Program-made: the position numbers and the translations under genes
Shown: piece by piece, positions 3,261-28,272 of the stretch
Layout: each line of letters starts with the position of its first letter
How positions within the stretch are numbered: position 1 is the first letter of the stretch
Notes under the pieces: generated by a model
What the model saw: the letters and a program-made list of their open reading frames with translations, nothing else
What the model was told of the DNA's origin: nothing
Databases searched by the model: none
From: Fidelibacterota bacterium
GTDB lineage: Bacteria > Fidelibacterota > Fidelibacteria > Fidelibacterales > Fidelibacteraceae
Direction of reading: 5' to 3'
NCBI GenBank assembly: GCA_021157965.1
Contig: JAGGVO010000041.1
Span: 224,119-256,118, forward strand
Length of the DNA: 32,000 nt

Positions 3261-3765
3261 TTTTTTTATCTAACTTTTCAAGAATTTCCCGAACGATGTC
3301 ACGGATGCTTCTTCCGTCGGTTTGAATATAATAATTCGCTTGTTTATAAACAAAAGTTCGTTTGTCCAGAATTTGCTGAATGTGAGCCGGCTGGAGAGGT
3401 TGAGGTAACAGAGGCCTGTTTTCACTCATTTTTACACGCTCCAGGATAGTTTGGGGTTCCGCCTGCAGCCAGATGACCACTCCCGTGGACTTCATCCATT
3501 CCCGGTTTCTTTCGTCCAGAGGAAATCCACCGCCGGTGGCAATGACCATATCAGAGGTATTGGGAAGAGGATCATGTTTTATGTCTCTTTCCAGTTTCCG
3601 GAAAGCCTCTTCACCTTCTGTCCGGAATATTTCCGGAATGCTCTTCCCTGTCTTTTTTTCCAGATAATGGTCCAGATCCAAAAAGGTGCATTTGAGTGAT
3701 TTTGCCAGAGCCTGGCCCACTTCGGTCTTGCCGGTTCCCATCATACCTGTCAGGAAGATGATCAT
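3253..3765 (-). CDS. aroK: shikimate kinase
   Basis: Walker A motif GMMGTGKTEVG at the N-terminus. 170 aa. ATGA stop/start overlap with aroC. Confidence 0.9.
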   Translation of the reverse strand: MIIFLTGMMGTGKTEVGQALAKSLKCTFLDLDHYLEKKTGKSIPEIFRTEGEEAFRKLERDIKHDPLPNTSDMVIATGGGFPLDERNREWMKSTGVVIWLQAEPQTILERVKMSENRPLLPQPLQPAHIQQILDKRTFVYKQANYYIQTDGRSIRDIVREILEKLDKKNA

Positions 3766-9334: not shown

Positions 9335-9636
9335 GATGAATGCTCCTTGTTCTCATTCGTATCTCTGGCACCCTCTTGTCCGGCCTTACGTCCAAGGGCA
9401 ATGATCTGCGTGAACAAGGCTTTCAGGTCCGCTGGTTTTAAAAAGCGGGATTGAACGCCCTCCAGGGAGTGATAAATTTCCTCTTCACGTCCCGGAACCG
9501 TCACAGGTTGTCCTGTTTTCCCCTTCTCCCTCCCGATCTGGTAGGCCAGTTCCATCCTTTTGGTTAAAAGTTCGACCAAAGATTTGTCGATACTGTCAAT
9601 TTGGCTCCGGAGAGATTGTATGATTGTTTCATCCAT
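9331..9636 (-). CDS. chorismate mutase (AroQ class)
   Basis: 101 aa helical protein. LRSQIDSIDKSLVELLTKRMELAYQIGREK and the later PGREEEI are typical of CM type 2. ATGA overlap with the DAHPS gene. Confidence 0.85.
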   Translation of the reverse strand: MDETIIQSLRSQIDSIDKSLVELLTKRMELAYQIGREKGKTGQPVTVPGREEEIYHSLEGVQSRFLKPADLKALFTQIIALGRKAGQEGARDTNENKEHSS

Positions 9637-10243: not shown

Positions 10244-11374
10244 ATGAATTCAGTGACGGTAATTCAGTCTCTGCAAACACTGAAAACCGAAGGGAATCCC
10301 GTAACAACGGTTTATCTTGACGTGTCTACATCCCAAAAGCTCCGAAATGCAGTTGTTGTTGTCAACAACATGTTTAAACAGAAAAAAGAGAAGACTTTTT
10401 ATAAAAACCTTTCAGAAAAGGAAAAAGTGTCTGTGCGGAAAGATGTGGAGGGTATTATCAAATTCCTTAATAACCAGCTGGGAGAAGATCGACAGTCGTT
10501 AATGATCGTATCGTCCAATCGGGCTTATGTGTGGCAGGTGATTCATCTGGGATTTCCGGTTGAAAATATGATGATGATTCAGGACCGCCCCTATCTGCGC
10601 CCTTTTCTGGAAGGCATCAGCCATGAACGGAATTATGCCATTGTCATGGTGGATCAGGGAAAGGCTAAAATTCTGATGAATCATCTCGGGAACAAGGAAG
10701 AAATGTTCAATGTGGTGAATCTGCTTCCTGAAGATGCCAATGAAGGCGGTTTTGGCGGTATGGATGAACGGAAGAATGAACGCCATCGTGAAGAGGTTGT
10801 GGCCAAGCATTATAAAAATGTGGCGGCTCAACTGGAAACACTGGATCGGAAATACCATTTTGACTGGATAATTTTGGGCGGACTCCGTGAGAGTATCTCC
10901 GATTTTGCCAACTATCTTAAAACCAATCTGAAGGATAAAATCAGCCGTGAAATCCATGTGGATCCCAATCTTCCCATGGATAAAGTTTTTCAGCTTGTGG
11001 ATAAGGAGATCCCGGGATGCCGTATGGATTTTGAGAAAGACATCCTGAATATGTTTGCCAATGAATTCCACAAGAACTACAAAGGTGTTGCCGGAATACA
11101 CCAGACGGAAGAAGCTCTTCAAAAGGGACAGGTGGACATGCTGATGATTCAGAATGGTTTTCAGACCAAAGGACGGGTGTGTAAATGGTGTTTGCACATG
11201 ACAACAGGGGAAGAAGACGAATGCCCCGGTTGCGGTCATCCCATGGTCCGAACCCTGGATATTACTGATGAGCTGATTCACCAGGCTTTGGATACCGGAG
11301 CGAAAATTGAATTTATCTCCTCGGATATGGGAGAATTTTCGCCCTTGTGCGGACTTCTTCGATATAAACCGTAA
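10244..11374 (+). CDS. bacterial eRF1/Pelota-like protein (baeRF-type) with C-terminal zinc ribbon, GGQ-less
   Basis: Central and C-terminal domain pattern of eRF1/Pelota: YAIVMVDQGKAKIL, WIILGG, GVAGIHQTEEALQKGQVDMLMI. Four-Cys insert CKWC..CPGC. Strong AAGGAGG Shine-Dalgarno site. Confidence 0.55.
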   Translation: MNSVTVIQSLQTLKTEGNPVTTVYLDVSTSQKLRNAVVVVNNMFKQKKEKTFYKNLSEKEKVSVRKDVEGIIKFLNNQLGEDRQSLMIVSSNRAYVWQVIHLGFPVENMMMIQDRPYLRPFLEGISHERNYAIVMVDQGKAKILMNHLGNKEEMFNVVNLLPEDANEGGFGGMDERKNERHREEVVAKHYKNVAAQLETLDRKYHFDWIILGGLRESISDFANYLKTNLKDKISREIHVDPNLPMDKVFQLVDKEIPGCRMDFEKDILNMFANEFHKNYKGVAGIHQTEEALQKGQVDMLMIQNGFQTKGRVCKWCLHMTTGEEDECPGCGHPMVRTLDITDELIHQALDTGAKIEFISSDMGEFSPLCGLLRYKP

Positions 11375-11389
11375 CCTGTTGATAATGCA

Positions 11390-11422
11390 GGGACTTTTAG
11401 GAAAAGTCTCAACAAATTTTTT
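11390..11422 (+). terminator. weak candidate rho-independent terminator
   Basis: Stem GGGACTTTT / AAAAGTCTC (one G-U pair) with a 3-nt loop. A T6 run follows after a 6-nt spacer. Begins 16 nt after the stop at 11374. Confidence 0.35.
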
Positions 11423-11460
11423 AATAAAAGGGTTTAAAACTATGATATATAGTTTTTATC

Positions 11461-11489
11461 TTGACTTTCATGTGTTTTGAATTTATATT
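11461..11489 (+). promoter_or_regulatory. candidate sigma70-type promoter of the rotor-stator operon
   Basis: TTGACT (11461-11466), a 17-nt spacer, then TATATT (11484-11489), set in an AT-rich 187-bp intergenic region about 70 nt upstream of the ATG at 11562. Confidence 0.4.
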
Positions 11490-11561
11490 TTTTTAAGTAT
11501 GTATATATGTTGAAAGTTGTTATTCAACAACCGTAAATTCAAAATAAAAAAGGAAAACAGG

Positions 11562-12488
11562 ATGTCCCTCAATCGATGGCTTCGTTTGGGAACCGTTTTG
11601 GTGTTGTTGTCAGGTTGTGCCTGGTTCAGGGGGGGCGAGAGTCCCGAAGGGGACGAAGGACTTGCCGTTGATTCAACGGAAATAGCTTTACAGAATGATT
11701 TAATTCAACAGGAAATGAATGAGATCACGACTTCCGGTACCCGGGATAGTGTTATTCAGGAGCGGGATTATTCCTTTGTTTTGAATGAGCTCTCCTATGA
11801 ATTGAAAAAACAGGGTGCCCGGATCAAACACCTGGAATCTGAGCTGAAAGACCTGAAGGCAAAATCCACCCTCTGGGAGAATCCCCTGAAGATTTATAAT
11901 AAAGAAATCATTCTTCAGAACGGGACCAGCATGTTTGGCAAGATCATGTACCAGGATAGTGATATTTTAAAAGTTCAAACGCTCATCGGGTACTTTGTCC
12001 TTTCCCGTGATGAGGTAGTGCGTATTGTGGATAATATTCCCGCATCTGCTGTTGAAAGCCGCGAAGTTGCGGCGGATCAGGCTTCCGGACAGCCGGTATC
12101 GGTACCGACAGCGGAAACGATTTCTCCTGTTGAATTACCGGAAAGACCCTCACCATCGGCGGTGGATGCAAATTGTATTTTGGTGGGGAACATCCGTGAA
12201 AGCACGGATCCCTCGGGGAATCGCATTTTTTCTGGAGAGGTGAAGAATATAGGTGCCCGTCGGGCTGATTTTGTAAAGATCACATTTGTCTTTCGCATGA
12301 ACTGGAGCGGTGAGACGAAAACCCTGACGACCTTTGTCAAGGGATCCTTTATGAATTATGCCAGTGGTGTTAGCTCTGATGCGGCCTTACTGCCCGGTGC
12401 CACCGGAAGGTTCACATTGAATATTCCGGCATCTTTTGGTACATTTATCGGTTATTCATATAGCATTAACTGGGAGGAATATGATTAA
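11562..12488 (+). CDS. lipoprotein with coiled-coil segment and C-terminal beta-sandwich-like domain
   Basis: Start at the ATG at 11562 (AAGGAAAA upstream). Signal peptide plus lipobox LVLLSGC. Heptad-rich LSYELKKQGARIKHLESELKDLKAK. The C-terminal part has alternating beta-strand patterns (FSGEVKNIGARRADFVKITFVF). No enzymatic motif. Confidence 0.6.
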   Translation: MSLNRWLRLGTVLVLLSGCAWFRGGESPEGDEGLAVDSTEIALQNDLIQQEMNEITTSGTRDSVIQERDYSFVLNELSYELKKQGARIKHLESELKDLKAKSTLWENPLKIYNKEIILQNGTSMFGKIMYQDSDILKVQTLIGYFVLSRDEVVRIVDNIPASAVESREVAADQASGQPVSVPTAETISPVELPERPSPSAVDANCILVGNIRESTDPSGNRIFSGEVKNIGARRADFVKITFVFRMNWSGETKTLTTFVKGSFMNYASGVSSDAALLPGATGRFTLNIPASFGTFIGYSYSINWEEYD

Positions 12489-13422
12489 GCGATTCTCGGC
12501 GTTACCGCATGTGATGATTCCGCTGCTTTTCTCTGTCCTTTTTCTTGCAGCCTGCGGAGGATCCCGTCCGGAAGTTCCTCCGGAGAAACTACAGCGGACC
12601 GAAGATGACCTGCGGAGGCGCGAACAGGAAGTCCAGCAAAAAACCATCGAGATTCTTGATCTGAAAAACCAGATCATTATACTCCAAAGTGAAATCAGTG
12701 AACTGAAATCCAATATTATCGAACTGGAAAGCCATCGTGATTCCCTTCGCTCCAGGCTGATGAATGAAAAAATGTCTGCCGAAGAGCTGGAGGGGATGTT
12801 ATCGGAACTGGACGAAAAAAACCTGGAACTGAAACGACAAAACGAGCTGCTTCAATCGTACCTGAATGCATCGCAGGATTCTATCCTGAAGGCGCTGGAA
12901 ACGGCTGCCGTGAAAGAATCCGAACAAAATCTTTTAAAAACAATCTCCCGGAATGAACCGGTAAAAACCGATACGGCAGTGGGAAAAATCGTTGCCGACA
13001 CAAGCGCTTTGAATGCAGCTATAAGTCCTGTCATGGATCTGACCCAGGATGAATACCTGCAGCGGTATCAGGATGCTCTGGACCTCCTGTTCGACAAACA
13101 ACGCAATAAGGCCATCGAGGAATTCAGGGAATTGATCCGAATTGCCCCGGATAACGATTATTCAGACAATTGCCAATACTGGATTGGTGAAGGGTATTAT
13201 GCACAGGGGCTCTACAGTCGTGCCATTGAGGAATTTGAAAAAGTCAAAACGCTGCCGAACGGCAATAAAGCTGATCATGCCCAATTTAAAATCGGTCTGT
13301 CTTACCTGAAACTGGGACAGAAAGTAGAAGGTCTGGAAGCCTTTAAAAAACTTCTGGAGGAATATCCGAACAGTGAATTGGTCGGCAAGGTCCGGGATAT
13401 GATTAATTCAGGACAGTTCTGA
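12481..13422 (+). CDS. YbgF/CpoB-like coiled-coil + TPR lipoprotein
   Basis: Start at 12481 (GGGAGGA Shine-Dalgarno site, ATGATTAA overlap with the previous stop). Lipobox LFLAACGG. Long coiled coil. C-terminal block NCQYWIGEGYYAQGLYSRAIEEFEKV..KADHAQFKIGLSYLKLGQ..EEYPNSE matches the YbgF/CpoB TPR domain. Confidence 0.7.
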   Translation: MIKRFSALPHVMIPLLFSVLFLAACGGSRPEVPPEKLQRTEDDLRRREQEVQQKTIEILDLKNQIIILQSEISELKSNIIELESHRDSLRSRLMNEKMSAEELEGMLSELDEKNLELKRQNELLQSYLNASQDSILKALETAAVKESEQNLLKTISRNEPVKTDTAVGKIVADTSALNAAISPVMDLTQDEYLQRYQDALDLLFDKQRNKAIEEFRELIRIAPDNDYSDNCQYWIGEGYYAQGLYSRAIEEFEKVKTLPNGNKADHAQFKIGLSYLKLGQKVEGLEAFKKLLEEYPNSELVGKVRDMINSGQF

Positions 13423-13423
13423 T

Positions 13424-14080
13424 ATGAAATTTTTGTGTTTCGTCTGTTCTTTGACATGTTTTGCCACTTTGGGTTTTTCTCAGGACCCTATGCTGGATAT
13501 GGATATGCTTTTTCCTGAACGGTCCGTCAGACAGGATTCTGCCCTGATAAACCTGCAATCTTCAGGAACGGATATGGGAGGGGCCGTCTCTCTGGCGGAA
13601 TTGCAAAAACGTATAGAACGCCTGGAAGAAGAAGTCCGATTGCTTAAAAAAGCCCTGGAAGAACGGCAACAGGTTACAGAAAAAAAGCCTGATGATCCGG
13701 GATTTCCTCTCATTGAGCAGCAACTGTATGCCCGGGCTCTCCGCTATTTTACAGCCGGGGATTATGGAAAGGCATCCGAATTGCTTCGGCAGGTGAGAGA
13801 AAACACACAAGAGAAAGAACTGAACCTCAGCGCCCTCTACTGGCTGGGGGAATGTGCCTTTCGGCAAAACAACTACAATGAAGCCGTGGTGCTTCTCCAG
13901 GAACTGCTTTCCGAAGAGAGTAAAATATTCCGGGAAAATGCCCTGATCCTTGTTGCCATCAGTTTCAGAAATCTCGGAAAACAGGCCGAATCCGAACGCT
14001 ATTTTCAGGCATATCTGGAAGCATACCCCGATTCAAAATATTCGGCCCTCGCCCGGAGAGAATTGAAAAAAAATCAGTGA
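13424..14080 (+). CDS. secreted YbgF/CpoB-like coiled-coil + TPR protein (second copy)
   Basis: Signal peptide MKFLCFVCSLTCFATLGFSQ. Short coiled coil (LQKRIERLEEEVRLLKKALEE). TPR block ALYWLGECAFRQNNYNEAVVLLQELL..AYPDSKYSALA. Starts 1 nt after the previous stop. Confidence 0.65.
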   Translation: MKFLCFVCSLTCFATLGFSQDPMLDMDMLFPERSVRQDSALINLQSSGTDMGGAVSLAELQKRIERLEEEVRLLKKALEERQQVTEKKPDDPGFPLIEQQLYARALRYFTAGDYGKASELLRQVRENTQEKELNLSALYWLGECAFRQNNYNEAVVLLQELLSEESKIFRENALILVAISFRNLGKQAESERYFQAYLEAYPDSKYSALARRELKKNQ

Positions 14081-14097
14081 TAAAAGTGATAAAAAAC

Positions 14098-15438
14098 ATG
14101 AAACAATTAAAATGGCTGTTCCTTCTGTTATGCGTGGTACTGTACGGCCATACGGCCCACGCATCCTCTCAGGTTTCCTTTATGAAACCGGGGCCCATGA
14201 TGCGGGTGCCGTCAAGTTCTGTGGAAGACTCACCCTATCTTTTCCGGACCGGTTTCGGTTCCGATCTGTACGGAATCGAAGATTTTCGCATGTCCAAAGG
14301 GGTCTTTTTCGATATGGACATTATCAATTCACTGAATGTGGGATTCTCCGTGATCCAGCCCTATGATGTTACCGCCATGAATACATCCGATGTGGAATAC
14401 GGCTTTCACCTGACGAAACGGGTTATGGCCTATGGGGATATTTCCATGGCTGTGGGACTTTGGGATTTTGTCCTGAGGAATATCGATGACGAAATGCAGG
14501 TGGATAATCAGAACTTTTCCTTTTTTGCTGTGATTTCTACTGAAAAGATGATGGGAGAAACGGGTTTTAATACATATATGGGTGTGGGTAGCGGTGGACT
14601 TTCCCGGGGTTTTTCAAGTAATGATACTACCACAAGTATAGGGGTTTTTGCCGGTTTCCTGTTCAGGACCGGTATGATGGCAGATCGGGGAGGGATTAAC
14701 CTGATTGGTGAATTTGACGGAGGGGGATTGAATCTGGGGATGGAAATCCCCCTGACGACAGAATACAGGTTGAATCTGGGTATCTCCCAATTACAGTGGC
14801 TGCCGAATTTTGGGAAGGAAAATGAGACCGATCTGCCGGCCATATCCATGGGCCTCACCCTGGCCATCCCCCGAAGTTTGCCGGGACGGGCATCACGGCG
14901 CAGCGGTATAGCGGTTGGTACGGGTGAGAATACAGGAACATCGGCGACAGAATCGGAATACCGTGCCAAACTGGATTCCATCCTGAGAGAAGCAGATGCC
15001 ACCATTATGGGCCTCCGGGATTCCCTGAGGATATCTGTCCAGACGGTGGACGACCTGAACAATACCATCGCCCTTCTCCGTCAGCAGAAATCCGTCCTGG
15101 AAGATTCTCTCCAATCGGTGAAACTTCAGCAGCATGTGATGCAGCAAAATATCAATCTGGCCCTGAAGCATTTGAGCCGGAGTCTCCGGTATTTTTATGC
15201 CGGCGATTATATTCAGGCGCTGAATGAGGTGGATATTGCCATCCAGCTCAATCCCAATCTTTCTCTTGCCTACGCACGCCGGGGGTCGATTTATTACAAA
15301 ATGGGAGATATTCAAAGGGCGGCGATCAACTGGAATCTGGCCCTGCAGATCGACCCCGAATATGATGATGTCCGCAATATTCTGAAGGTCCTCCAGGAAA
15401 CCCGCTCTCGTACAGGGTCCTTCATGAACAATAACTAA
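14098..15438 (+). CDS. secreted beta-barrel-like domain + coiled coil + TPR fusion protein
   Basis: The ATG at 14098 gives the signal peptide MKQLKWLFLLLCVVLYGHTAHASS. A GTG at 14077 overlapping the previous TGA is the alternative start. The first ~250 aa are Gly/aromatic-rich alternating strands (YGFHLTKRVMAYGDISMAVGLWDF, GINLIGEFDGGGLNLGMEI, YRLNLGISQLQW). A coiled coil follows, then TPRs (YFYAGDYIQALNEVDIAIQLNPN, AYARRGSIYYKMGD). Confidence 0.6.
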   Translation: MKQLKWLFLLLCVVLYGHTAHASSQVSFMKPGPMMRVPSSSVEDSPYLFRTGFGSDLYGIEDFRMSKGVFFDMDIINSLNVGFSVIQPYDVTAMNTSDVEYGFHLTKRVMAYGDISMAVGLWDFVLRNIDDEMQVDNQNFSFFAVISTEKMMGETGFNTYMGVGSGGLSRGFSSNDTTTSIGVFAGFLFRTGMMADRGGINLIGEFDGGGLNLGMEIPLTTEYRLNLGISQLQWLPNFGKENETDLPAISMGLTLAIPRSLPGRASRRSGIAVGTGENTGTSATESEYRAKLDSILREADATIMGLRDSLRISVQTVDDLNNTIALLRQQKSVLEDSLQSVKLQQHVMQQNINLALKHLSRSLRYFYAGDYIQALNEVDIAIQLNPNLSLAYARRGSIYYKMGDIQRAAINWNLALQIDPEYDDVRNILKVLQETRSRTGSFMNNN

Positions 15439-15447
15439 GGAGTCTGA

Positions 15448-16242
15448 ATGGATTTTGCAACCATCTTAGGGATTTTTATGGGCCTGGGACTGATCTTTTT
15501 TGGAATTACACTCCTTACACAGGATTATCAGATGTTTTGGTCCCTGCCCTCCCTTGCCATTGTTTTGGGAGGATCCCTTGCCGCCACACTGATTGCCTTT
15601 CCCCTTCACGAAGTCGGCCGCGTTTTTAAGGTGATTGGCATTGTCTTCAGAAAAGAACGGCGGGATATGCAAACGCTGGTCCGCCAGGTTACGGAACTGG
15701 CGGCTTTTGCCCGGCGGGGTCCAACAGAACTTGAGAAGCACATTGAAGAGGTGAAACATCCCTTTTTGAAGGATGGTATTCAGCTTGTGATTGACGGCTA
15801 TAGTGATGCTGATATCCGGGAAATCCTCACGTTGCGGATTGTAAACCGTGAACAGCGTGAAAAAGGGGAAGTGAATGTTGTAAAAACCATGGGAAAACTA
15901 TCCCCTGCTTTTGGTATGATCGGAACCCTTATCGGATTGGTTGTGATGCTATATGGCATGAGTGTAAGCGATGCGTCGGGCGATATGGCGGCTCAGCTTG
16001 GAAGAGGGATGGGTGCGGCCATTGTGACAACCTTCTACGGGGCTATTCTGGCGAATCTCTTTTTCAATCCAGCTGCCGCGAAAATCGATTCCCGTATTCA
16101 GAAAGCTTCCATGCTTCAACTGATGCTCATCGAAGGTGTTTGTCTTCTCTATCACCGGAAACATCCCCTCATTGTCCGGGAAAAGCTGAATTCCTTTCTC
16201 CCCCCCCGGGACTGGATCCGTGAAGAAGAACGAAAAGGCTGA
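15448..16242 (+). CDS. motA: flagellar-type stator protein MotA/PomA
   Basis: MDFATILGIFMGLGLIFFGI N-terminus. Four TM segments. Cytoplasmic loop ARRGPTELEKHIEEVKHPFLKDGIQLVIDGYSD aligns with the PomA/MotA loop. Conserved channel prolines SPAFGMIGTLIGLV and FFNPAAAKI. AAGGAG Shine-Dalgarno site. Confidence 0.88.
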   Translation: MDFATILGIFMGLGLIFFGITLLTQDYQMFWSLPSLAIVLGGSLAATLIAFPLHEVGRVFKVIGIVFRKERRDMQTLVRQVTELAAFARRGPTELEKHIEEVKHPFLKDGIQLVIDGYSDADIREILTLRIVNREQREKGEVNVVKTMGKLSPAFGMIGTLIGLVVMLYGMSVSDASGDMAAQLGRGMGAAIVTTFYGAILANLFFNPAAAKIDSRIQKASMLQLMLIEGVCLLYHRKHPLIVREKLNSFLPPRDWIREEERKG

Positions 16243-16901
16243 TGGAAAAAACAAAGAAAAAAATACCCCTTCCCCCTGAAGAGACGGATTCGGAAGAGTG
16301 GCTTGTTACCTATTCGGATATCATGACACTGCTCATGACTTTTTTCGTATTGCTTTTTTCCATGTCCACCATCGACCCTGTGAAAATTGAACAGTTTGGT
16401 GAGGCGATGGGAAAGGAACTGGGAGTCAAGACCTCTGAAAGAACCGGCCGGGTCTCCCTTGCCCAGATTGACCGGGACGTGAAGGAGATTGTCAACGAAG
16501 AAAACTTAAACGAATATGTGGAAGTCACCCATTCCTACAGAGGGGTGACTATCTCGATTGTGGCTGATATCCTGTTTACCCGGGGAAGTGCCGAGCTGAA
16601 TCCCCGGGTCTATTCGATTCTTAACAAATTTATTCCGAAGATTCAAAATTCCATCTATCAGATTGCTGTGGAGGGACATACAGACAGTGATCCCATCCAT
16701 TCGGATAAATATCCGTCAAACTGGGAATTGTCTGCTGCCAGAGCCTCGCAGGTTGTCAATTATTATATTTCACAAGGCATTGATCCGGAACGTTTCAGGG
16801 CCATTGGTTTTGCTCATACCCGGCCTAAAAAACCAAATACAAGTCCGGAAAACAAGAGCCAGAACCGCCGGGTTGAAATAACATTCCTGGCAATATCTTA
16901 A
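16242..16901 (+). CDS. motB: stator protein MotB with OmpA-like peptidoglycan-binding domain
   Basis: WLVTYSDIMTLLMTFFVLLF plug/TM segment with the channel Asp (D26, nt 16317-16319). C-terminal OmpA-like block VEGHTDSDPI..NWELSAARASQV..NRRVEI. TGATG overlap with motA. Confidence 0.88.
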   Translation: MEKTKKKIPLPPEETDSEEWLVTYSDIMTLLMTFFVLLFSMSTIDPVKIEQFGEAMGKELGVKTSERTGRVSLAQIDRDVKEIVNEENLNEYVEVTHSYRGVTISIVADILFTRGSAELNPRVYSILNKFIPKIQNSIYQIAVEGHTDSDPIHSDKYPSNWELSAARASQVVNYYISQGIDPERFRAIGFAHTRPKKPNTSPENKSQNRRVEITFLAIS

Positions 16902-16916
16902 TAAAGGAGAGCTACA

Positions 16917-18470
16917 ATGAATTGTCGGAATCGCATGTGTTTAACTCTGGCAATAATTCTGTTAACATCAGCTATGCTGAGTGGTGAATCCCCGAATTAT
17001 CTGTCCCAGAAACTCGCACTCGAACAGGCACTCCAGAATAAAATTTCACAGGCTGTAGAACGCATTCTCGGGAATAATCATTTTATTGTTGATGTGAAAG
17101 CAGATTTGGATTTTGTTCCCGATCAGCGCGTTGAGGAAGTGTATGAACCGGCGGTACCGGGACGTGCACTTGTACAACCGGCTCCTGAAGCCGAAAGTTC
17201 CCGGGAAAGGGACAGGGCCTACGAAGAAGAATACAATGAAATTCTCCCCGGCATACCTGCGCGGATTGGCGACCGCGGATTGGATATCCTGACAGAAGAG
17301 CTTCCGTCAGATACTTCCCGTATCCGCGAGGAGCAAACAGCCGTTCTGCCGGGAGTTGAGAATATTGAACCGGAGAGGCTCAAAAGCCGTTCGGTTGCCC
17401 GTTCTGTTCCCCTGATTCCGAAAGTCAGGAAACTGGACATCAGCATCATTTTAAAGGAAGGCATCGAGCCGGATCTGGTGGAATCCATTCGTCAGGTGGC
17501 AATGATTGCCTCCCATTTCGACCGCTCCCGGGGAGATATGCTGAGTATTATGACAACGACTTTCAGGGATGACAAGCTGATGGCCGGTGCGGAAACCGGA
17601 GTAATACCGGGAGATGTTGAGTATCAGCCATCCCGCGAAGAACAGGAACGGACCGATGAAACTCAGGAACTGATTCGCCAAATCCAGGATCAGATTGAAC
17701 GGCTTTCACAACAGCAGCAGAGGCAGGCGCCCCGGAGCAATGAACCCACACCAACGGAAAACATGCTGCTTAAAATCATTGATAAGCTCAATACCCGTCA
17801 GTCCCTTGCCGATGATCTGGAAACACAGAAGATGATTACGGAGCAGAAGCTCCGGCTTGAAATGCTGGGACGCGATACTACCCGATTGCAGGAACTCCGG
17901 GATGAAATAGCAGCCCTGAAACTTCAGCTGGCAACCCGGGAAATGGCTGTTGAAGACCGGGAAAGTACACGGGCTGCATCAGACAGTATGCTTCGGGAAA
18001 AAGAAGAACTGGAAGAGGCCATTGCGGAAAAAATCGCCCTCCTCTCGGAGACGCAAAAAGAGCTTATGGACATGCAAAAGGCTCAAATCCCCTGGTGGTT
18101 CTGGGGGCTTCTGGCTGCTTTGCTTGCTGTTGTCATTGTGCTGGTTGTACTGATTCTGAACCGCGGCAGAGTGCGCCGTCAGGAGGAAGAAGCTCCGAAA
18201 CCGGAACCGGCAGCCAGCGAGGATGCCCTCCGTGAAAAGATTCTCAGGGAATTGCGGGAAAGCAAGAAAGAGAGCAAACTTGAGCGGGAACCGGATCAGG
18301 GATCCGATATGGCTGAAAAGCGGGCGGAGCTGGAAGGAATCCGGAAAAATATCGTCAATATGAGTGTAGCCAACCCCGATACTGCCAGCAAGATTATCCG
18401 GGATTGGATGGAAGAAGATGAAACGCCCGCAGACCAGGCGGAAGAAAAAGGAGAACGGAAAAATGAGTGA
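16917..18470 (+). CDS. FliF-like ring protein: RBM3-like domain + long coiled coil + TM helix + FliG-binding-like tail (RBM1/RBM2 absent)
   Basis: N-terminal hydrophobic segment. LEQALQNKISQAVERILGNNHFIVDVKADLDF resembles the start of FliF RBM3 (LEQRVEQILSPIVGNGNVHAQVTAQLDF). KLDISIILKEG..IRQVAMIASHFDRSRGDMLSIMTTTF resembles its end (LSVAVVVN..GFSDKRGDTLNVVNSPF). About 165 aa of coiled coil follow, then TM IPWWFWGLLAALLAVVIVLVVLIL. The tail ASKIIRDWMEEDE resembles the C-terminal IRQWM FliG-binding helix of FliF as I recall it. Confidence 0.65.
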   Translation: MNCRNRMCLTLAIILLTSAMLSGESPNYLSQKLALEQALQNKISQAVERILGNNHFIVDVKADLDFVPDQRVEEVYEPAVPGRALVQPAPEAESSRERDRAYEEEYNEILPGIPARIGDRGLDILTEELPSDTSRIREEQTAVLPGVENIEPERLKSRSVARSVPLIPKVRKLDISIILKEGIEPDLVESIRQVAMIASHFDRSRGDMLSIMTTTFRDDKLMAGAETGVIPGDVEYQPSREEQERTDETQELIRQIQDQIERLSQQQQRQAPRSNEPTPTENMLLKIIDKLNTRQSLADDLETQKMITEQKLRLEMLGRDTTRLQELRDEIAALKLQLATREMAVEDRESTRAASDSMLREKEELEEAIAEKIALLSETQKELMDMQKAQIPWWFWGLLAALLAVVIVLVVLILNRGRVRRQEEEAPKPEPAASEDALREKILRELRESKKESKLEREPDQGSDMAEKRAELEGIRKNIVNMSVANPDTASKIIRDWMEEDETPADQAEEKGERKNE

Positions 18471-19398
18471 TCCTCAAAAACTTTCCAATCTGGACAGGGC
18501 CGCAATCATTTATAAAATATTGGGGGACAATTTATCCGTCTCCCTTTTCAGGCACCTTTCCCAGGCGCAGTTGACTAAATTGCGGCGCCATGCCGAAACG
18601 CTGACTAAAGTGCCTTTCGATCTGAAAAGAAAGGTTCTGGAAGAGTATTATTTTCAGCTTATGTCTGAAAAAATCCGGTCCGTCAGCGACGGGGACCAGA
18701 AAGTGCTTTTTGATTTCTTAAAACCTATGTCTTCTGATCAAATCAAATACCTGCTGGAGCCGGAAAGCGAACTGGTAAAAGCCCTTGTCCTGAGCCAGCT
18801 GAGCATTGAAGTACAGGTGGATGTCATAAAAAACATGGAAGAAGATGAACGGGCACGGGTTTTAATACAGATGAATGATATCGATAAAATCCCTTATGAA
18901 GGGATTATCAATATTGAGAACGATATTCGCGAAAAATCCCGGCTGGTTCCCCATAAAGCCCATTTTAACAAAGGAGGATCCAAACAGATTGCTGATATCC
19001 TGAGTAAGCTGGAGCCGGATTTTGAAGAACAGTTTGTAAGTCATGTACAAAATGAAGACCCGGAACTGGCCCGTGATCTGGCGAAATATTACATACCTTT
19101 TGACAGTTTCGACAAACTTCCGGTGGATGTGGTCAGGGAGGCGCTGAAAAGCGTGGAACTGAATGATCTGGCCCTGGCCCTGAAGGGAATGAGCGAAGAA
19201 TTTGTCACCTATATTCTGGGAAATCTGCCACAGAAAACCCAGATAATGCTGGAAGATGAAATAAAGGATGTGGAAGGTCCCCAGCCCCGGCGGAAAGTTG
19301 AAAGTGCACGGCGCAAACTGACCCAGGCCGTGAAACAACTTGCTGCCGAGGGTAAATTTGATATTGAGGATTTCCTCGATACGGATATGGTGGAATAA
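18463..19398 (+). CDS. fliG: FliG-like rotor/switch protein
   Basis: Start at the ATG at 18463 (AAAGGAGAA Shine-Dalgarno site, ATGAGTGA overlap with the upstream stop). Collinear with FliG throughout: LDRAAIIYKILG, LLEPESELVKALVLSQL (EHPQ region), NKGGSKQIADILSKLEP (Gly-Gly linker), EDPELA, LNDLALALKGMSEE, torque helix LPQKTQIMLEDEI, GPQPRRKVESARRKLTQAVKQLAAEGKFDI. Confidence 0.85.
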   Translation: MSDPQKLSNLDRAAIIYKILGDNLSVSLFRHLSQAQLTKLRRHAETLTKVPFDLKRKVLEEYYFQLMSEKIRSVSDGDQKVLFDFLKPMSSDQIKYLLEPESELVKALVLSQLSIEVQVDVIKNMEEDERARVLIQMNDIDKIPYEGIINIENDIREKSRLVPHKAHFNKGGSKQIADILSKLEPDFEEQFVSHVQNEDPELARDLAKYYIPFDSFDKLPVDVVREALKSVELNDLALALKGMSEEFVTYILGNLPQKTQIMLEDEIKDVEGPQPRRKVESARRKLTQAVKQLAAEGKFDIEDFLDTDMVE

Positions 19399-22316: not shown

Positions 22317-23072
22317 ATGAAGTATTGCGTAAAAATATCCCTCCTGTTTTTGCTTTTGGTCGGCTCACTGGCGGCACAGTTCGTCCCGGCACCGGTTCAG
22401 TTAATTAATACCCCGACTGTCGCAACCCTGGCACGGGGATCTTACCTGACTGATTTACGTTTTACCACCAATGGCGGGGTGCTGATCGGGGCAACAGTAG
22501 GTCTGACAGATCGTTTTTCCATGGGTATATCCTATGGAGGATCCAACATTATCGGCAATGAAAATATCACCTGGAATCCCCAGCCCGGTGTGAGTGTCAA
22601 ATATCGACTTATTGATGAAGGAATGAAAAAACCGGGTGTCTCTATGGGATTTTCCTCTCAGGGCTATGGGGCTTATACCGACGGGAATTATGAAATTCCT
22701 TCCTCCGGCTTTTATTCTGTCCTCAGCAAAAACTGGCATTTTATCGGCAATACAAGCCTTCATGCAGGGGCTAATTATTCCCTGGAACAGCCAGACAGCA
22801 CCTATATCCCCTCTTTCTTTGCCGGGGCTGCCATTGAACTAAATCCTCAATTCTCTATTATGATCGAATATGATGCCGCCCTGAATTATGAAAAATTTTC
22901 AGATTTAAAAAAATTCAAAATTTCCGGCGGGTACGGTTTTCTGAATGCCGGTGTCCGCGTTGGCATTACGGAAAATCTCTACCTGGAAGTGGATCTGAAC
23001 AATCTTATCTGGGGCGAAAATGTGGAATCCTTTAACCGTGAAATTAAATTGATGTATTTTGATATCTTCTGA
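22317..23072 (+). CDS. outer-membrane beta-barrel protein (possibly YjbH-like)
   Basis: Signal peptide MKYCVKISLLFLLLVGSLAAQ. Alternating amphipathic strands. C-terminal aromatic residue (..KLMYFDIF). The N-terminal INTPTVATLARGSY resembles the start of YjbH-type barrels, from memory only. Confidence 0.6.
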   Translation: MKYCVKISLLFLLLVGSLAAQFVPAPVQLINTPTVATLARGSYLTDLRFTTNGGVLIGATVGLTDRFSMGISYGGSNIIGNENITWNPQPGVSVKYRLIDEGMKKPGVSMGFSSQGYGAYTDGNYEIPSSGFYSVLSKNWHFIGNTSLHAGANYSLEQPDSTYIPSFFAGAAIELNPQFSIMIEYDAALNYEKFSDLKKFKISGGYGFLNAGVRVGITENLYLEVDLNNLIWGENVESFNREIKLMYFDIF

Positions 23073-23073
23073 C

Positions 23074-24726
23074 ATGAAATCCTTTCAGCTTTCTTCCGAG
23101 ATTCTTGCTTCCAAATCCAAAGATGAACTGATAGATATTATCAGAATCATTCAGGACCGGGTCAATGTTTTTGTCTCGGTAGGGACATCCCTCAGTACGG
23201 AAAAAAACCAGGATGTCCTCCTGGAAAATATTGTAACCTATGCGAAAAAATTAACCGGTGCCGATGCCGCAACGCTTTATATGATGTCGGAAGATGAAAA
23301 AAAACTCAGGTTTAGCATTGTCCATACAGATTCCATGAATATCCGGATGGGGGGGACATCGGGAAATCCCATCGATTGGTATCCGGTGAAATTGTATAAT
23401 GAGGATGGATCGCCCTATCTGGAGATGGTTGCGGCGTATGTTGCATTGAAGAAGGAAACCCTGAACTTTGAAGATGTGTACGATGTAAAAGATTTTAATT
23501 TTACCGGTACACGGCAGTTTGACCGAAAAACCGGTTACCGGACTCAGTCCATGCTGGCTCTGCCAATGCTGAACCATGTAAATGAAGTGATTGGTGTACT
23601 CCAATTAATCAATGCAAAAGACGAATCGGGGAACACCATTGCCTTCTGTCCTGAATTCCAGGCGCTGACGGAAGCTCTGGCCAGTCAGGCCGCCGTGGCC
23701 ATTACGGAAAACCGTCTTATCAATGGACTTGAAGAATTATTGAATTCCATCATCCGTGTAATTGCTTCGGCGATTGATGAAAAATCCAAATATACAAGTG
23801 GTCACATTGAACGGGTGGCGAAACTGGCAGTGTATCTGGCACAACAGATTTCTGAAAGCCGGGACGGTGTTTACAAAGATGTCCGCTACAGTGACGAGAA
23901 AATTGAGGAGATCCGTTTTGCCGGCCTTCTTCACGATATCGGTAAGATTACCACACCGGAATACGTGGTGGATAAATCCACAAAACTGGAAACCATTTAT
24001 GACAGGATCCGGACGATTTTTCTCCGTTTTGAATTGCTGAAAAAAGATCGTGAAATAGAGATGTGGAAGGCTTTAGCAGGAACGCCGCAAGATGATTCTT
24101 CCAGAGCTGAACGGGAAAATCTGATGAAAGAGCTGGAAGAAGAAATCCGGAAAATCAGTGAGGATTATGCCTTTATTCAGCGGATGAATACAGGGGGTGA
24201 GTTTCTCAAACCCGAATACAAGAACCGGATTTGCGATATTGCACGGTATACTGTTACGATAGATGGAAAAAGTACGCCTATCTTAACGGATGATGAGATT
24301 CTTAATCTGCATATTTCCAAAGGTACACTGACCGAGGAAGAACGGCAAATCATTAATAATCATGCGGTTGTCACTGATAAAATGCTCTCACAGCTTCCAT
24401 TTCCCAAGAAATTGAAAAATGTTCCCGAGTATGCTGCCAACCACCATGAACGCATGGACGGTTCGGGATATCCCAAGGGACTTAAAGCGGAAGATTTGGA
24501 ATTGCCGGCGCGTATCATGGCCATGGCCGATATTTTTGAAGCCTTAACAGCGCCGGACAGACCCTACAAAAAAGGGAAAACACTTTCTGAAGCCATGAAA
24601 ATCATGGAATTTATGGTGAAGGATTATCATATCGATCCGGATCTGTTTGCCTTTTTCAAGGAAGCTAAAGTATACCGCTGGTATGCAGAAAAATTCATGA
24701 ATCCCGAACAAATTGATATGGATTAG
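23074..24726 (+). CDS. GAF domain-containing HD-GYP c-di-GMP phosphodiesterase
   Basis: HD-GYP signature: GHIERVAKLA, FAGLLHDIGKI, NHHERMDGSGYPKGL, ADIFEALTAPDRPYKK. The N-terminal ~200 aa is GAF-like (ADAATLYMM..LRF..QSMLALPM..VIGVLQLIN). About a 100-aa insert lies between the HD and GYP halves. The ATG at 23074 is preferred over the TTG at 23059. Confidence 0.85.
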   Translation: MKSFQLSSEILASKSKDELIDIIRIIQDRVNVFVSVGTSLSTEKNQDVLLENIVTYAKKLTGADAATLYMMSEDEKKLRFSIVHTDSMNIRMGGTSGNPIDWYPVKLYNEDGSPYLEMVAAYVALKKETLNFEDVYDVKDFNFTGTRQFDRKTGYRTQSMLALPMLNHVNEVIGVLQLINAKDESGNTIAFCPEFQALTEALASQAAVAITENRLINGLEELLNSIIRVIASAIDEKSKYTSGHIERVAKLAVYLAQQISESRDGVYKDVRYSDEKIEEIRFAGLLHDIGKITTPEYVVDKSTKLETIYDRIRTIFLRFELLKKDREIEMWKALAGTPQDDSSRAERENLMKELEEEIRKISEDYAFIQRMNTGGEFLKPEYKNRICDIARYTVTIDGKSTPILTDDEILNLHISKGTLTEEERQIINNHAVVTDKMLSQLPFPKKLKNVPEYAANHHERMDGSGYPKGLKAEDLELPARIMAMADIFEALTAPDRPYKKGKTLSEAMKIMEFMVKDYHIDPDLFAFFKEAKVYRWYAEKFMNPEQIDMD

Positions 24727-24855: not shown

Positions 24856-26022
24856 ATGAGTTATACACGTATTCTCATTCCGGATGCATATCACACCTAT
24901 CTTGGCATCCCCTATGATGAAGAAATTGTTCCCTTCCCCAATTTTGGTACGGTTCTGATTCAACACCGGCGCTATCTGCCGGATAAACCGGCATTCATCT
25001 GGGAAAATGTCCCGCCTGTTACATTTAAAGAATGGAGTTCCGGCGTCAGACTTCTGTCTGGCGCTCTAAAACAAGCTGGGCTGGATTTTTCCTCGCGTGT
25101 ACGCCTGAACCTGGACCTGGGTCCCCGAACCCTCTTCCTCTTTCATGCCCTGCTGGACGGGGGCATTCCGGCAATTTTAACAACCGATCCGGATACCGGT
25201 TTCACATTTCCCCTGCCGGGTGATGTGATCATGCCGGGAGAATTTATCCTGAAGGGTCCCGGGGATATATCCGGTTCGATTCATTCCGTCGTTGACACCT
25301 TGCTTCATACCCGTCCTGAAGCTCCGGATCCCTTTGAAGTTCCCTATATCTCCCTGGACCATTCCGCACTCTTCTGTTTTGATGAAGAGATGTGGTATGA
25401 GTTCACTCAGTATAATCTCCTTTCTGCGGCTCAATCCGTGGGGAAAGAACTCTCCCTGTTCCGGGACGGGGAAACTCTTTTTGCCAAATCCGCCGCAGAT
25501 TTGGCAGATTGGCTTTTCGCTGCCCTTGCATCCTTTTATTACGGATCGACGACGCGCTTTGAAACGGATATGGACGCACAAAAGGCGGAAAATATCCTCA
25601 AAGAGAGAAAAACACAGGTTCTGATTCCTGATATTTCCCGGACCGGTATATTCTCACCGGACCTGACAACCGGAGAAGTTCTCCGGGATGCTGCGATCCT
25701 CTGCAGAGATCCACGGATCGGGAAAATTCCGGAAACCCTTTCTTTTCCCTGGCGCTGTTTCTGGACAGCTCCGGTCTTTGCCGGCAATGGGGTTTTTGTA
25801 TCCGAAAAAAAAGGGACTTGTTGCAAAGGACTGGATTTCATCGTATCCGGGTCACCAGACAGAGGACGATTGATGGTGCTGGGGCATTCCGTTCCCCATG
25901 CTGTCTGGCTGGAAGAACCGGAGCATTGGGAATCCCAATTCAAAAAACACCTGGAGCTCCCCTTTTATGTCCGCTGTGAAGACCCGCAGCGCAGGACTTT
26001 CATTGTCCTTGATGATCAATGA
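24856..26022 (+). CDS. hypothetical protein (remote, degenerate resemblance to adenylate-forming enzyme N-terminus)
   Basis: 388-aa ORF. The segment DKPAFIWENVPPVTFKEWSSGVRLLSGALKQAGLDFSSRV resembles the substrate-announcing N-terminus of acyl-CoA ligases. I see no SGTTG-type P-loop. No clear Shine-Dalgarno site. Confidence 0.45.
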   Translation: MSYTRILIPDAYHTYLGIPYDEEIVPFPNFGTVLIQHRRYLPDKPAFIWENVPPVTFKEWSSGVRLLSGALKQAGLDFSSRVRLNLDLGPRTLFLFHALLDGGIPAILTTDPDTGFTFPLPGDVIMPGEFILKGPGDISGSIHSVVDTLLHTRPEAPDPFEVPYISLDHSALFCFDEEMWYEFTQYNLLSAAQSVGKELSLFRDGETLFAKSAADLADWLFAALASFYYGSTTRFETDMDAQKAENILKERKTQVLIPDISRTGIFSPDLTTGEVLRDAAILCRDPRIGKIPETLSFPWRCFWTAPVFAGNGVFVSEKKGTCCKGLDFIVSGSPDRGRLMVLGHSVPHAVWLEEPEHWESQFKKHLELPFYVRCEDPQRRTFIVLDDQ

Positions 26023-26061: not shown

Positions 26062-26880
26062 ATGGATATTGCAACACTTTTCGGCTTACTTATCGGACTT
26101 GGACTCATTGCCTTTGGCATGATGGATGAATCATTCAGCATTCCTCACACCTTTCTGAACTGGAATGCCATGGCGGTTGTGCTGGGAGGGACCCTGGCCG
26201 CCACAATGATCAATTATCCCTTCAAACAATTTCTCGGCCTTTTGAAAGTGACGGGAAAAGCTTTTGCCAGACATCACCAGGAAAGTCTGAAAACCATTCA
26301 TCAGCTTGTGGGTTACAGCAAGCTGATTCGTGCAAAGGGCCTGCTTTCCCTGGAAGACCAACTGCCGGAGATGAAGAACCGTTTCATGCAAACGGGTATT
26401 GAAATGGCACTTATCGAAAAAGACAGCAAAAAACTTGAGCGATTTTTAAGAAGTGAACTGACCAATATGGTTATTCGCCACAAGAACGGCCAGGAGATGT
26501 TTTATAATATGGGATCCTATGCTCCGGCATTCGGGCTCTTGGGGACCGTGATGGGTCTTATTCTGATGATGACCCAGCAGAGTCAGGTCACCGGAGTGAT
26601 GACTTTTGCCCAGGACACCCAAGTGATGATGACATCCCTGCTAAGTGGCATGGGAAGAGCCCTGGTAACCACATTTTACGGAGTTCTCCTTGCAAACCTT
26701 ATTTTTATCCCTATTGGTGGAAAACTGAAAACCCGGTCCGATGAAGAAATCTTCATTAACGAAATCATCCTGACAGGCATATTAAGTCTTCACGCCCGGG
26801 AACATCCCCTGATTATGGAAGAAAAACTTCTGACCTTTATTCCCAAAGCTGAAAAAGATTTTCTGAAACACCATGACTGA
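26062..26880 (+). CDS. motA: flagellar-type stator protein MotA/PomA, second copy
   Basis: MDIATLFGLLIGLGLIAFGM. Loop IRAKGLLSLEDQ is very close to PomA ARKDGLLALEGQ. APAFGLLGTVMGLI and FIPIGGKL channel prolines. 272 aa. Confidence 0.88.
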   Translation: MDIATLFGLLIGLGLIAFGMMDESFSIPHTFLNWNAMAVVLGGTLAATMINYPFKQFLGLLKVTGKAFARHHQESLKTIHQLVGYSKLIRAKGLLSLEDQLPEMKNRFMQTGIEMALIEKDSKKLERFLRSELTNMVIRHKNGQEMFYNMGSYAPAFGLLGTVMGLILMMTQQSQVTGVMTFAQDTQVMMTSLLSGMGRALVTTFYGVLLANLIFIPIGGKLKTRSDEEIFINEIILTGILSLHAREHPLIMEEKLLTFIPKAEKDFLKHHD

Positions 26881-27571
26881 TGACAGGATGCGTTATAAAA
26901 CATTCGACAGAGACGGCTGGAAAATTATATACGCCTCCCTGCTTACGGGGATTCTGGCCTTTTTCCTCCTCTTTGTCAGTCGGGCGACCAATGAAGCGAC
27001 ATCCGTATTCAGTTTTTCAGACAATCTGACAGCCCGGATCGGCCGTCAGCTGGAGCAGATCAGGGAACGGGAAGGAATGGATTGGCTGTATATTGAAAAC
27101 ACAGGAACAAAAGGGATTAAAATTCTCATTCCCTCCCGGGTGGAAAACCAGCCCTTTTTTAATTCAGCATCGGATGAAATCAACCCCAATTTTTATCCCT
27201 ATCTGGCACAGCTTGTGAGTCTGATCAATGAAACCGACCTTCCCCTGCTGGAGGCGATGTACCGGGAACAGATTGCCCGGATTGAATCCTATGGATACTA
27301 CATCGATACGGATATCCGAATTGAAGGACATTCGGATCAGCAACCTATCCGAACACAACGGTTTTCGGATAATTGGGATCTGTCCACAGCCAGGGCTTAT
27401 CAGGTGATGCAATATCTGCAATACCGCCTGCCTGTGCCGGAGGATTATTTTTCGATTGCGGGATACGGCTCCTTTCATCCTTTGCACGATGTCAGAAACT
27501 GGGACGAGAACCGCCGGGTCGAAATCTATATTAAGGTGAATATGATAAACAGGCGGGGCGGAACATCATGA
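26873..27571 (+). CDS. MotB-like OmpA-domain protein lacking the channel aspartate
   Basis: TM segment WKIIYASLLTGILAFFLLF, where Ser22 (nt 26936-26938) occupies the invariant Asp position. OmpA-like C-terminus IEGHSDQQPI..NWDLSTARAYQV..NRRVEIYI. Overlaps the motA stop. Confidence 0.8.
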   Translation: MTDDRMRYKTFDRDGWKIIYASLLTGILAFFLLFVSRATNEATSVFSFSDNLTARIGRQLEQIREREGMDWLYIENTGTKGIKILIPSRVENQPFFNSASDEINPNFYPYLAQLVSLINETDLPLLEAMYREQIARIESYGYYIDTDIRIEGHSDQQPIRTQRFSDNWDLSTARAYQVMQYLQYRLPVPEDYFSIAGYGSFHPLHDVRNWDENRRVEIYIKVNMINRRGGTS

Positions 27572-28272
27572 AACTTTTTTCCACACGGCAGGACACCTTG
27601 TCCAGTCGTGAAAGGGCTGTCCGCTCCGGGTGGATTCTCTCTTTTGGTGATATCATGACCCTTTTGCTGACATTTTTCATCATGATGATTGCCCGTCAGT
27701 CAGGTGAAATCAGCCGGATCCACCGGTGGACCCATGACCGGCTGCAAGAAACCGGCCGGGAAATCCGTTTAGCCATTGAAAAGCAGGATTTGTCAGCCTT
27801 TACTGTGAACTATCATTCAAAAGGCGTACAGATTACCATCAGCGGTGAATCGCTGTTTAATCCGGGAGAGGCAGAACCCCTTCCGGAGTTCAGGCGTCAA
27901 CTGACAGATCTGGCACATGCGATTCGCACTCTGGATATTCTGGATTTGACTCAAACGGAACATCGGCAGTTGCTTCGGGAATTGCGGGAAAACGGCCTGG
28001 CCTGGCAGGTGGAAATCCGCATAGAGGGACATACGGATAATGTCCCCTTAGGTCCTAATGTCCGGTTTAGGGACAACTGGGAATTGAGCGCCGCCCGGGC
28101 CCAGAGTGTGATGCGGATTCTACATCAGGAAACAGAAATTCCTGAGGAACGTTTTGCCGTGGCTGGCTTTGGTGAGTTCAACCCTGTGGCGTCCAACGAG
28201 ACTGAATCGGGGAGAAACCGGAACCGGCGTGTAGAAATCTATATTGATGCTTCCATTCAAAAAATTCAGTAA
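27568..28272 (+). CDS. motB: MotB-like OmpA-domain stator protein (Asp present)
   Basis: WILSFGDIMTLLLTFFIMMIA with D28 (nt 27649-27651). IEGHTDNVPL..NWELSAARAQSV..NRRVEIYI. ATGA overlap with the preceding gene. Confidence 0.85.
   Translation: MKLFSTRQDTLSSRERAVRSGWILSFGDIMTLLLTFFIMMIARQSGEISRIHRWTHDRLQETGREIRLAIEKQDLSAFTVNYHSKGVQITISGESLFNPGEAEPLPEFRRQLTDLAHAIRTLDILDLTQTEHRQLLRELRENGLAWQVEIRIEGHTDNVPLGPNVRFRDNWELSAARAQSVMRILHQETEIPEERFAVAGFGEFNPVASNETESGRNRNRRVEIYIDASIQKIQ

Follow-up and report, generated by a model that had tools for sequence, protein, structure and literature searches.

A flagellar-type stator operon encoding one MotA and two MotB paralogs, the first of which lacks the channel aspartate, in a Fidelibacterota bacterium

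The 32,000-nucleotide (nt) stretch of DNA analysed here, hereafter the window, belongs to a Fidelibacterota bacterium (assembly GCA_021157965.1, contig JAGGVO010000041.1, positions 224,119–256,118 of the forward strand). It carries the gene pair motA1–motB1 (15448–16901) and, as a second stator locus, a three-gene operon on the plus strand in which one motA gene is followed by two motB-like genes. The first, motA2 (26062–26880), encodes a flagellar-type stator A subunit of 272 amino acids (aa) with a MotA_ExbB domain (PF01618; E=1e-24). It is followed by motB2a (26873–27571), coding for a 232-aa MotB paralog without the channel Asp (OmpA domain, E=5e-10), and motB2b (27568–28272), coding for a 234-aa MotB paralog with the channel Asp (OmpA domain, E=2e-14). 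The stop codon of motA2 overlaps the start codon of motB2a in ATGACTGA (26873–26880, plus strand), and that of motB2a overlaps the start of motB2b in ATGA (27568–27571, plus strand). The open reading frames (ORFs) and both overlaps were read directly from the sequence and are as given in an earlier note on this DNA; its proposal of a second stator locus is borne out.

The position of the MotB ion-binding Asp is occupied in MotB2a by Ser22 (codon TCC, 26936–26938, plus strand), whereas MotB2b has Asp28 (codon GAT, 27649–27651, plus strand). The earlier note had made this assignment from the equal distance between Trp and the Asp position in the three MotB proteins of the window, and hand-checked numbering gives the same result: W20/D26 in MotB1, W22/D28 in MotB2b and W16/S22 in MotB2a. 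In a phmmer alignment, residues 14–43 of MotB2a match residues 17–46 of MotB from Clostridium sporogenes (6YSF), which places Ser22 opposite the Asp. In the corresponding column of MotB2b the Asp is found in 26/26 triads and in 116/116 full-length homologs. The membrane helix of MotB2a (residues 16–37, WKIIYASLLTGILAFFLLFVSR; 26918–26983, plus strand) contains no Asp or Glu at any position. E41 was considered as a replacement for the lost Asp and rejected. An acidic residue stands 19 positions past the site in all three proteins (E41 in MotB2a, D45 in MotB1, E47 in MotB2b) and is present in Asp-bearing and Asp-less MotB2a lineages alike; it is therefore a general feature of these proteins. A channel-facing acidic residue, which would have spoken against the earlier note's proposal, was thus not found in the helix.

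Around the substituted residue MotB2a retains the features of a stator B subunit. Its AlphaFold2 (AF2) model (mean predicted local distance difference test score, pLDDT, 85.6) consists of one long helix (residues 15–67), which includes the membrane helix, followed by an alpha/beta domain. Foldseek matches to this fold include PomBc5 (template modelling score, TM, 0.77; root-mean-square deviation, rmsd, 2.8) and MotS (E=3e-11), and structurally the domain most resembles the periplasmic parts of MotS, PomB and the MotB proteins of Helicobacter and Salmonella. We assign the periplasmic OmpA-like peptidoglycan-binding domain to residues ~73–226 (27089–27550, plus strand) from the model, these matches and the peptidoglycan-binding motifs GH[ST]D, NW[DE]LSxxRA and NRRVE, which are invariant in 25 MotB2a orthologs. 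The membrane helix is identical to that of E. coli MotB at 11/20 positions, more than the helix of MotB2b, and the signature W..xY.x[LF]LT..LAFF is kept around the lost Asp. Only 5/20 residues are common to the MotB2a and MotB2b helices, although both are conserved in their respective families. With the Pfam MotB_plug model, MotB2a scores 18 bits, below the gathering cut-off of 24, and MotB2b 34 bits, above it. MotB2a is thus a homolog of stator B subunits but not a canonical MotB, as it lacks the invariant Asp that MotB2b possesses.

Solved MotA and PomA chains can be aligned with the whole of MotA2, the best match being C. sporogenes MotA (6YSF/8UCS; E=6e-44, residues 2–265); MotA2 scores 165–172 bits against MotP, MotA and PomA and 18 bits against TolQ. 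Among the 26 triads used for residue counts, the equivalent of E. coli R90 is Arg in 21 and Lys in 3, and the equivalents of E98, P173, P222 and T209 are kept in 26/26. The A180 position is Thr in 26/26, which, from PomAB structures, we take to be the sodium-type Thr (PomA T158). Eleven residues past the Asp position, MotB2a and MotB1 have Leu, like the sodium-type MotS and PomB, whereas proton-type MotB has Val. MotB2b has Met at this position, as does the Na+/K+ MotS of Bacillus alcalophilus (PMC3457975). Several features that define flagellar-type stators (the 'FIT' group of PMC12505986) are present in the A subunit, which has the MotA_ExbB channel domain, both Pro residues and the expanded cytoplasmic torque interface with its FliG-contact charges. 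Others are present in both B subunits, each of which combines a single membrane helix with a plug/linker and an OmpA-like domain (for MotB2a, the helix and the MotS/PomB/MotB-like domain are seen in the model). Judged from these residues and domains, the triad is a stator of the flagellar type, probably sodium-coupled. Relative to solved MotA chains, MotA2 and its orthologs contain an insertion of ~14 residues in the periplasmic loop between membrane helices 3 and 4 (residues ~170–193; window 26569–26640, plus strand). Affiliation with the Zorya system (ZorAB) was rejected: MotA2 fits no PADLOC model and has no ZorA match, no Zorya partner genes were found nearby, and the B proteins match ZorB through general MotB/OmpA similarity only.

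MotB2a has ~90 orthologs, 40–100% identical to it, in Marinimicrobia (Fidelibacterota); the source names of the nearest proteins are Candidatus Marinimicrobia, Fidelibacterota and FCB group. Loci are denoted below by L-numbers; a scan of metagenome contigs with the N-terminal 100 residues of MotB2a was one source of related ones. All 22 related loci with sufficient flanking sequence, from Marinimicrobia and a Thiotrichales-type group, have the order motA2–motB2a–motB2b, so that the triad, for which the earlier note had suggested a survey of relatives, proves to be conserved. In these loci motB2a and motB2b usually overlap, by 4–8 nt, as in L081, L083, L111, L112, L114 and L115. A profile search of 1.84 billion representative proteins retrieved further full-length relatives from outside the phylum, some of them from the cultured Gammaproteobacteria Thiomicrospira aerophila AL3 (THIAE_02950) and Thiomicrorhabdus indica and from a Thiotrichales metagenome-assembled genome (MAG). 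In 5/5 out-of-phylum contexts (L111–L115) a motA gene is followed by an Asp-less and then by an Asp-bearing motB. The best matches of the A subunit, first B protein and second B protein are MotA2, MotB2a and MotB2b, respectively; as each protein is closest to its own counterpart in the window, the whole triad is orthologous. The L111 triad (7167–9427) is that of T. aerophila AL3 (CP007030.1, ~616.9–619.1 kb), and the L112 triad (7140–9562) lies on a contig that encodes a protein identical to Thiomicrorhabdus indica WP_321275919.1. The residue at the Asp position of the Thiotrichales triads is Gly (T. aerophila AL3) or Ser. Where the earlier note had seen a single locus, there is a module of three genes, conserved across at least two phyla.

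The Asp column of 104 MotB2a sequences holds Asp in 50, Ser in 47, Ala in 5 and Gly in 2, which amounts to 10 parsimony steps; it takes only Asp or small residues and never large hydrophobic ones. Apart from this column the helix is nearly invariant, with W16, Y20, L23, T25, L28, A29, F30 and F31 each changing in 1–4 steps. The Ser that the earlier note had singled out is encoded by TCN codons in the clade of the window, among deeper Marinimicrobia lineages and at the Thiotrichales-type loci, and by AGY codons in a marine subclade that nests among lineages with Asp (GAY); the other codons at the site are GGT in one locus and GCA in another. Since TCN and AGY cannot be converted into each other in one step without leaving Ser, Asp and Ser must have been exchanged at least twice. 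In neighbour-joining trees rooted on the paralog, the Asp-type marine clade is derived. Taken at face value, this topology would imply a regain of the Asp followed by renewed loss, although the branching may be a long-branch artefact. With many orthologs, those of the marine clade, having Asp, the Asp site of MotB2a is dispensable rather than uniformly lost.

A column-by-column comparison revealed no position in MotA2 or MotB2b that follows the Asp or non-Asp state of MotB2a, and thus nothing compensates for the loss of the Asp. One candidate for a linked change in the marine clade, 'GDT' in MotB2b accompanying Asp-type MotB2a versus 'GDM' accompanying the Ser-type, fails in L093, where Asp accompanies GDM, and in L114, where Ser accompanies ADT, and the association is probably phylogenetic. 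Between L086 and L087 the ratio of non-synonymous to synonymous substitution rates (dN/dS) is 0.029 for MotA2, 0.051 for MotB2a and 0.080 for MotB2b, and for MotB2a it is 0.02–0.05 overall. Non-synonymous divergence (pN) of MotB2a is similar to that of MotB2b in most of nine locus pairs and higher in L088/L089 and L092/L095. By these measures MotB2a is under purifying selection and as constrained as MotB2b. A substitution inherited across a family of ~100 sequences under such selection is more than a matter of chance. That motB2a is a decaying, functionless duplicate, an explanation suggested by the absence of a residue regarded as essential and by the weak MotB_plug score, and one that the earlier note had allowed for, is refuted by the dN/dS values, the ~90 intact orthologs and the Thiotrichales relatives, the invariant helix and peptidoglycan-binding motifs, and the confident AF2 model.

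A comparable arrangement was encountered among 80 unrelated loci, which derive from a genome scan driven by generic OmpA motifs, include no Marinimicrobia and served as a random sample. Seven of the 80 have an A–B–B arrangement. In three of these seven, all from Desulfobacterales MAGs, the Asp position is occupied by Gly, Ser and Gly, respectively, in the first MotB and by Asp in the second. The motA–motB'–motB genes (L002, 4908–7496; L015, 254–2562; L055, 5172–7393) are flanked by flgE and fliL in the core flagellar operon, the Pfam-confirmed order being flgD–flgE–motA–motB'–motB–fliL–fliM–fliN, in one case on to fliR. The two Desulfobacterales MotB proteins resemble one another and MotB1 of the window more than they do MotB2a or MotB2b, which points to a separate duplication, probably independent of the one that produced MotB2a and MotB2b. 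It is the copy directly 3' of motA that lacks the Asp in both the triad family and the Desulfobacterales.

The genes surrounding the triad differ between clades, and the triad is therefore self-contained. Its neighbours in the window are an HD-GYP protein, a 388-aa ORF and YchF. The 388-aa ORF (24856–26022), directly 5' of motA2, gave no match in Pfam, NCBIfam or PADLOC; its position is kept in related loci, where it evolves fast (41% identity where that of MotA2 is 80%). The HD-GYP/GAF protein (23059–24726) is encoded two genes 5' of the triad in the window clade and is kept out to L088. Other genes related to cyclic di-GMP (c-di-GMP) lie near other triads: an NIT-GGDEF protein (L115, 3699–5315) adjoins that of L115, and two PilZ proteins and a PAS-GGDEF-EAL protein (L112, 13608–16760) are encoded 4–7 kb 3' of that of L112. 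Their presence beside triads could reflect either chance or regulation. In marine Marinimicrobia the triad is followed by a gene for a 1288-aa Peptidase_C25 protein with an FlgD_ig-like domain (L081, 7505–11371; L083, 7501–11367), and on the upstream side are found a gene for a SurA-like chaperone and a small Haem_bd gene. Asp-type and Ser-type lineages have this neighbourhood in common. The Marinimicrobia contig L090 has an extra motA–motB pair (1787–3327) ~0.8 kb 5' of the triad, with products 48% and 36% identical to MotA2 and MotB2b, respectively. The Thiotrichales triads are positioned outside any flagellar operon, 3' of glyQ–glyS and of HAD phosphatase and acyltransferase genes and 5' of ung and gyrB.

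To our knowledge, the ion-binding Asp is invariant in known MotB and PomB proteins. The triad resembles the canonical MotA5MotB2 and PomA5PomB2 stators (6YSF, 6YKM, 8BRD) in that MotA2 aligns end to end with rotor-facing and channel residues kept, and in that both B proteins combine one membrane helix with a peptidoglycan-binding domain of the MotB/PomB/MotS type. It differs from them in having two distinct B genes, with divergent helices and with one product lacking the Asp. One motA gene followed by two motB genes of a flagellar-type stator is also found in Aquifex aeolicus, but there the MotB helices are 97% identical and both contain the Asp; each of the two proteins worked with MotA alone as a chimera, and they differ in the periplasmic part (PMC4525482). 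In the triad the helices have diverged (5/20) and MotB2a has no Asp, which sets it apart from the Aquifex type. The gliding motor of Myxococcus, for which an AglR5:AglQ:AglS complex with a heterodimeric axle has been proposed from an AlphaFold model (PMC11761067), was brought up in the earlier note. The analogy holds for the one A-type and two B-type subunits, but it is a loose one: the mid-membrane Asp is present in both AglQ and AglS (PMC9389320), and AglRQS is of the TolQ/TolR type, with a condensed cytoplasmic domain in the A subunit, and has neither the torque interface of MotA nor an OmpA-like domain. It belongs to another branch of the family than the triad. Xanthomonas exbB–exbD1–exbD2 likewise has tandem B-type paralogs 3' of one A-type gene, the second paralog having a distinct role (PMC3551730), but this is a Ton system and not a flagellar-type stator.

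With its second stator locus besides motA1–motB1, the window is reminiscent of the dual stators of Pseudomonas (MotAB/MotCD) and Bacillus (MotAB/MotPS). Known dual stator systems consist of complete A and B pairs, each with its own Asp, and we know of none with an Asp-less B subunit. A survey of stators in 205 genomes took only the gene directly 3' of motA as the B subunit and does not mention Asp-less paralogs (PMC12505986). Neither an Asp-less MotB paralog nor such an arrangement was found described in the open-access literature; subscription journals were outside this search, and absence is thus unproven.

The most likely reading of these data, to which we would assign a probability of roughly one half, is a single flagellar-type stator unit in which a MotB2a/MotB2b heterodimer would form the central axle inside a MotA2 pentamer (A5:B':B). 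MotB2b would supply the only obligatory ion-binding Asp. MotB2a would be a full structural partner, contributing a membrane helix like that of MotB, a plug-like helix and a domain that binds peptidoglycan, while its Asp site, being dispensable, would drift among Ser, Ala, Gly and Asp. In the Ser lineages, including that of the window, ions would then pass along one of two pathways only. A heterodimer with one working Asp is suggested by the strict co-occurrence and translational coupling of the two motB genes and by the variable Asp of MotB2a as against the invariant Asp of MotB2b. It is further suggested by the equal constraint on both proteins, by the retention of the MotB signature in the MotB2a helix except at the Asp, and by the two helices being different yet each conserved, unlike the interchangeable Aquifex pair. 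The same arrangement in Desulfobacterales points the same way. Co-occurrence, coupling and the contrast at the Asp position are what the heterodimeric core with a single functional Asp, put forward in the earlier note as a possibility, would predict; the 5:1:1 stoichiometry, conduction along a single pathway and the coupling ion are our inferences.

Several considerations weigh against this interpretation. Substitutions of Asp32 in E. coli MotB reportedly (Zhou et al., 1998) abolish function and are dominant negative. Current models need alternating protonation of both Asp residues (bioRxiv 10.64898/2026.04.14.718414). In view of these models and of the mutant effects, a motor with one Asp would need a modified cycle. 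About half of the MotB2a proteins have Asp, and in those lineages both sites may work. No FliG-like protein was found from triad-bearing marine Marinimicrobia. Finally, the sole isolate of the phylum is non-motile (PMC11652737). As to a flagellar rotor more generally, the FliG-like gene of the window adjoins motA1–motB1 rather than the triad; the Thiotrichales triads reside among housekeeping genes, and the Desulfobacterales counterpart inside flagellar operons.

Alternatively, and the earlier note had already allowed for an anchoring or regulatory role of the Asp-less paralog, MotA2 might be shared by two homodimeric stators, a working motor with MotB2b(2) and a non-conducting MotA2(5):MotB2a(2) unit, which would bind the same rotor and cell wall and act as a brake, place-holder or torque regulator. 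In Aquifex a single MotA is known to work with either of two MotB proteins (PMC4525482), all peptidoglycan-binding motifs are present in MotB2a, and the c-di-GMP genes near triads (HD-GYP in the window clade, GGDEF in L115, PilZ and GGDEF-EAL in L112) would fit regulated braking. We consider this arrangement less likely than the mixed axle. The marine MotB2a proteins have the Asp, so that the brake would be a motor in half of the family, with no other systematic change. Helices sharing 5/20 residues, as against 97% identity in Aquifex, would both have to fit the MotA2 ring as symmetric dimers, and the tight translational coupling suggests equimolar synthesis.

Less likely still is a location of MotB2a outside the MotA2 ring, as a membrane-anchored accessory that would scaffold MotA2/MotB2b or anchor it to peptidoglycan in the manner of MotY, FliL or MotC, or of TonB/TolA at the periphery of ExbB/TolQ. 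Loss of the Asp would be expected outside the channel, and both the MotB_plug score below the Pfam cut-off and the well-conserved periplasmic domain agree with such a role. It is difficult to reconcile, however, with a helix that keeps the MotB signature and is closer to E. coli MotB than that of MotB2b, and the restriction of the Asp column to Asp, Ser, Ala and Gly suggests tight polar packing rather than exposure to lipid.

The first stator locus (window 10244–19398; also L117, 1313–10945) also lies outside any flagellar operon. It encodes an eRF1-like protein, an uncharacterised protein of ~320 aa, three TPR/YfiO-like proteins (11517–15438), MotA (motA1, 15448–16242), MotB (motB1, 16242–16901), a short FliF-like protein (16917–18470) and a FliG-like protein (18418–19398). 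The FliF-like protein comprises only the RBM3/YscJ_FliF_C region, a C-terminal membrane helix and a cytoplasmic tail, and the FliG-like protein has all three FliG domains; no fliE, fliH, fliI, fliM, fliN or export-gate genes were found in the cluster. The cluster recurs in another Marinimicrobia MAG, with 43% identity of FliG. The FliG-like protein has ~17 orthologs, found only in the non-marine clade of the window, beyond which identity is ~20%, with canonical FliG. This cluster could be a minimal, non-flagellar rotor–stator device; the phylum's single isolate is non-motile.

In 5:2 motors one residue is regarded as indispensable, the ion-binding Asp found in MotB, PomB, ExbD and TolR. Current rotation models have both Asp residues of the B dimer act in alternation, and a conserved, selected Asp-less B subunit that is always encoded beside an Asp-bearing partner is a natural experiment on this point. 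We tentatively suggest, as a possibility that falls somewhat short of an even chance, that the triads represent a 5:2 flagellar-type motor with an obligate heterodimeric single-Asp axle (A5:B':B), which would probably have arisen at least twice independently. If so, one ion pathway would be enough to turn the MotA ring, and strict alternation of two Asp residues would not be required; the second Asp would have been toggled over evolution (Asp, Ser, Ala, Gly), providing natural one-site and two-site versions for comparison. Should the two B proteins share one axle, step size, ion-to-rotation coupling and directionality would need rethinking; should they form separate complexes, the Asp-less unit would be a new kind of built-in non-conducting stator, a brake or place-holder. 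Surveys that take the gene directly 3' of motA as MotB (PMC12505986) would pick the Asp-less copy here. The question is tractable, as the module is present in the cultured, flagellated T. aerophila AL3 and Thiomicrorhabdus indica and has a counterpart in the flagellar operons of Desulfobacterales, and natural controls exist in sister lineages that have either Asp or Ser at the site.

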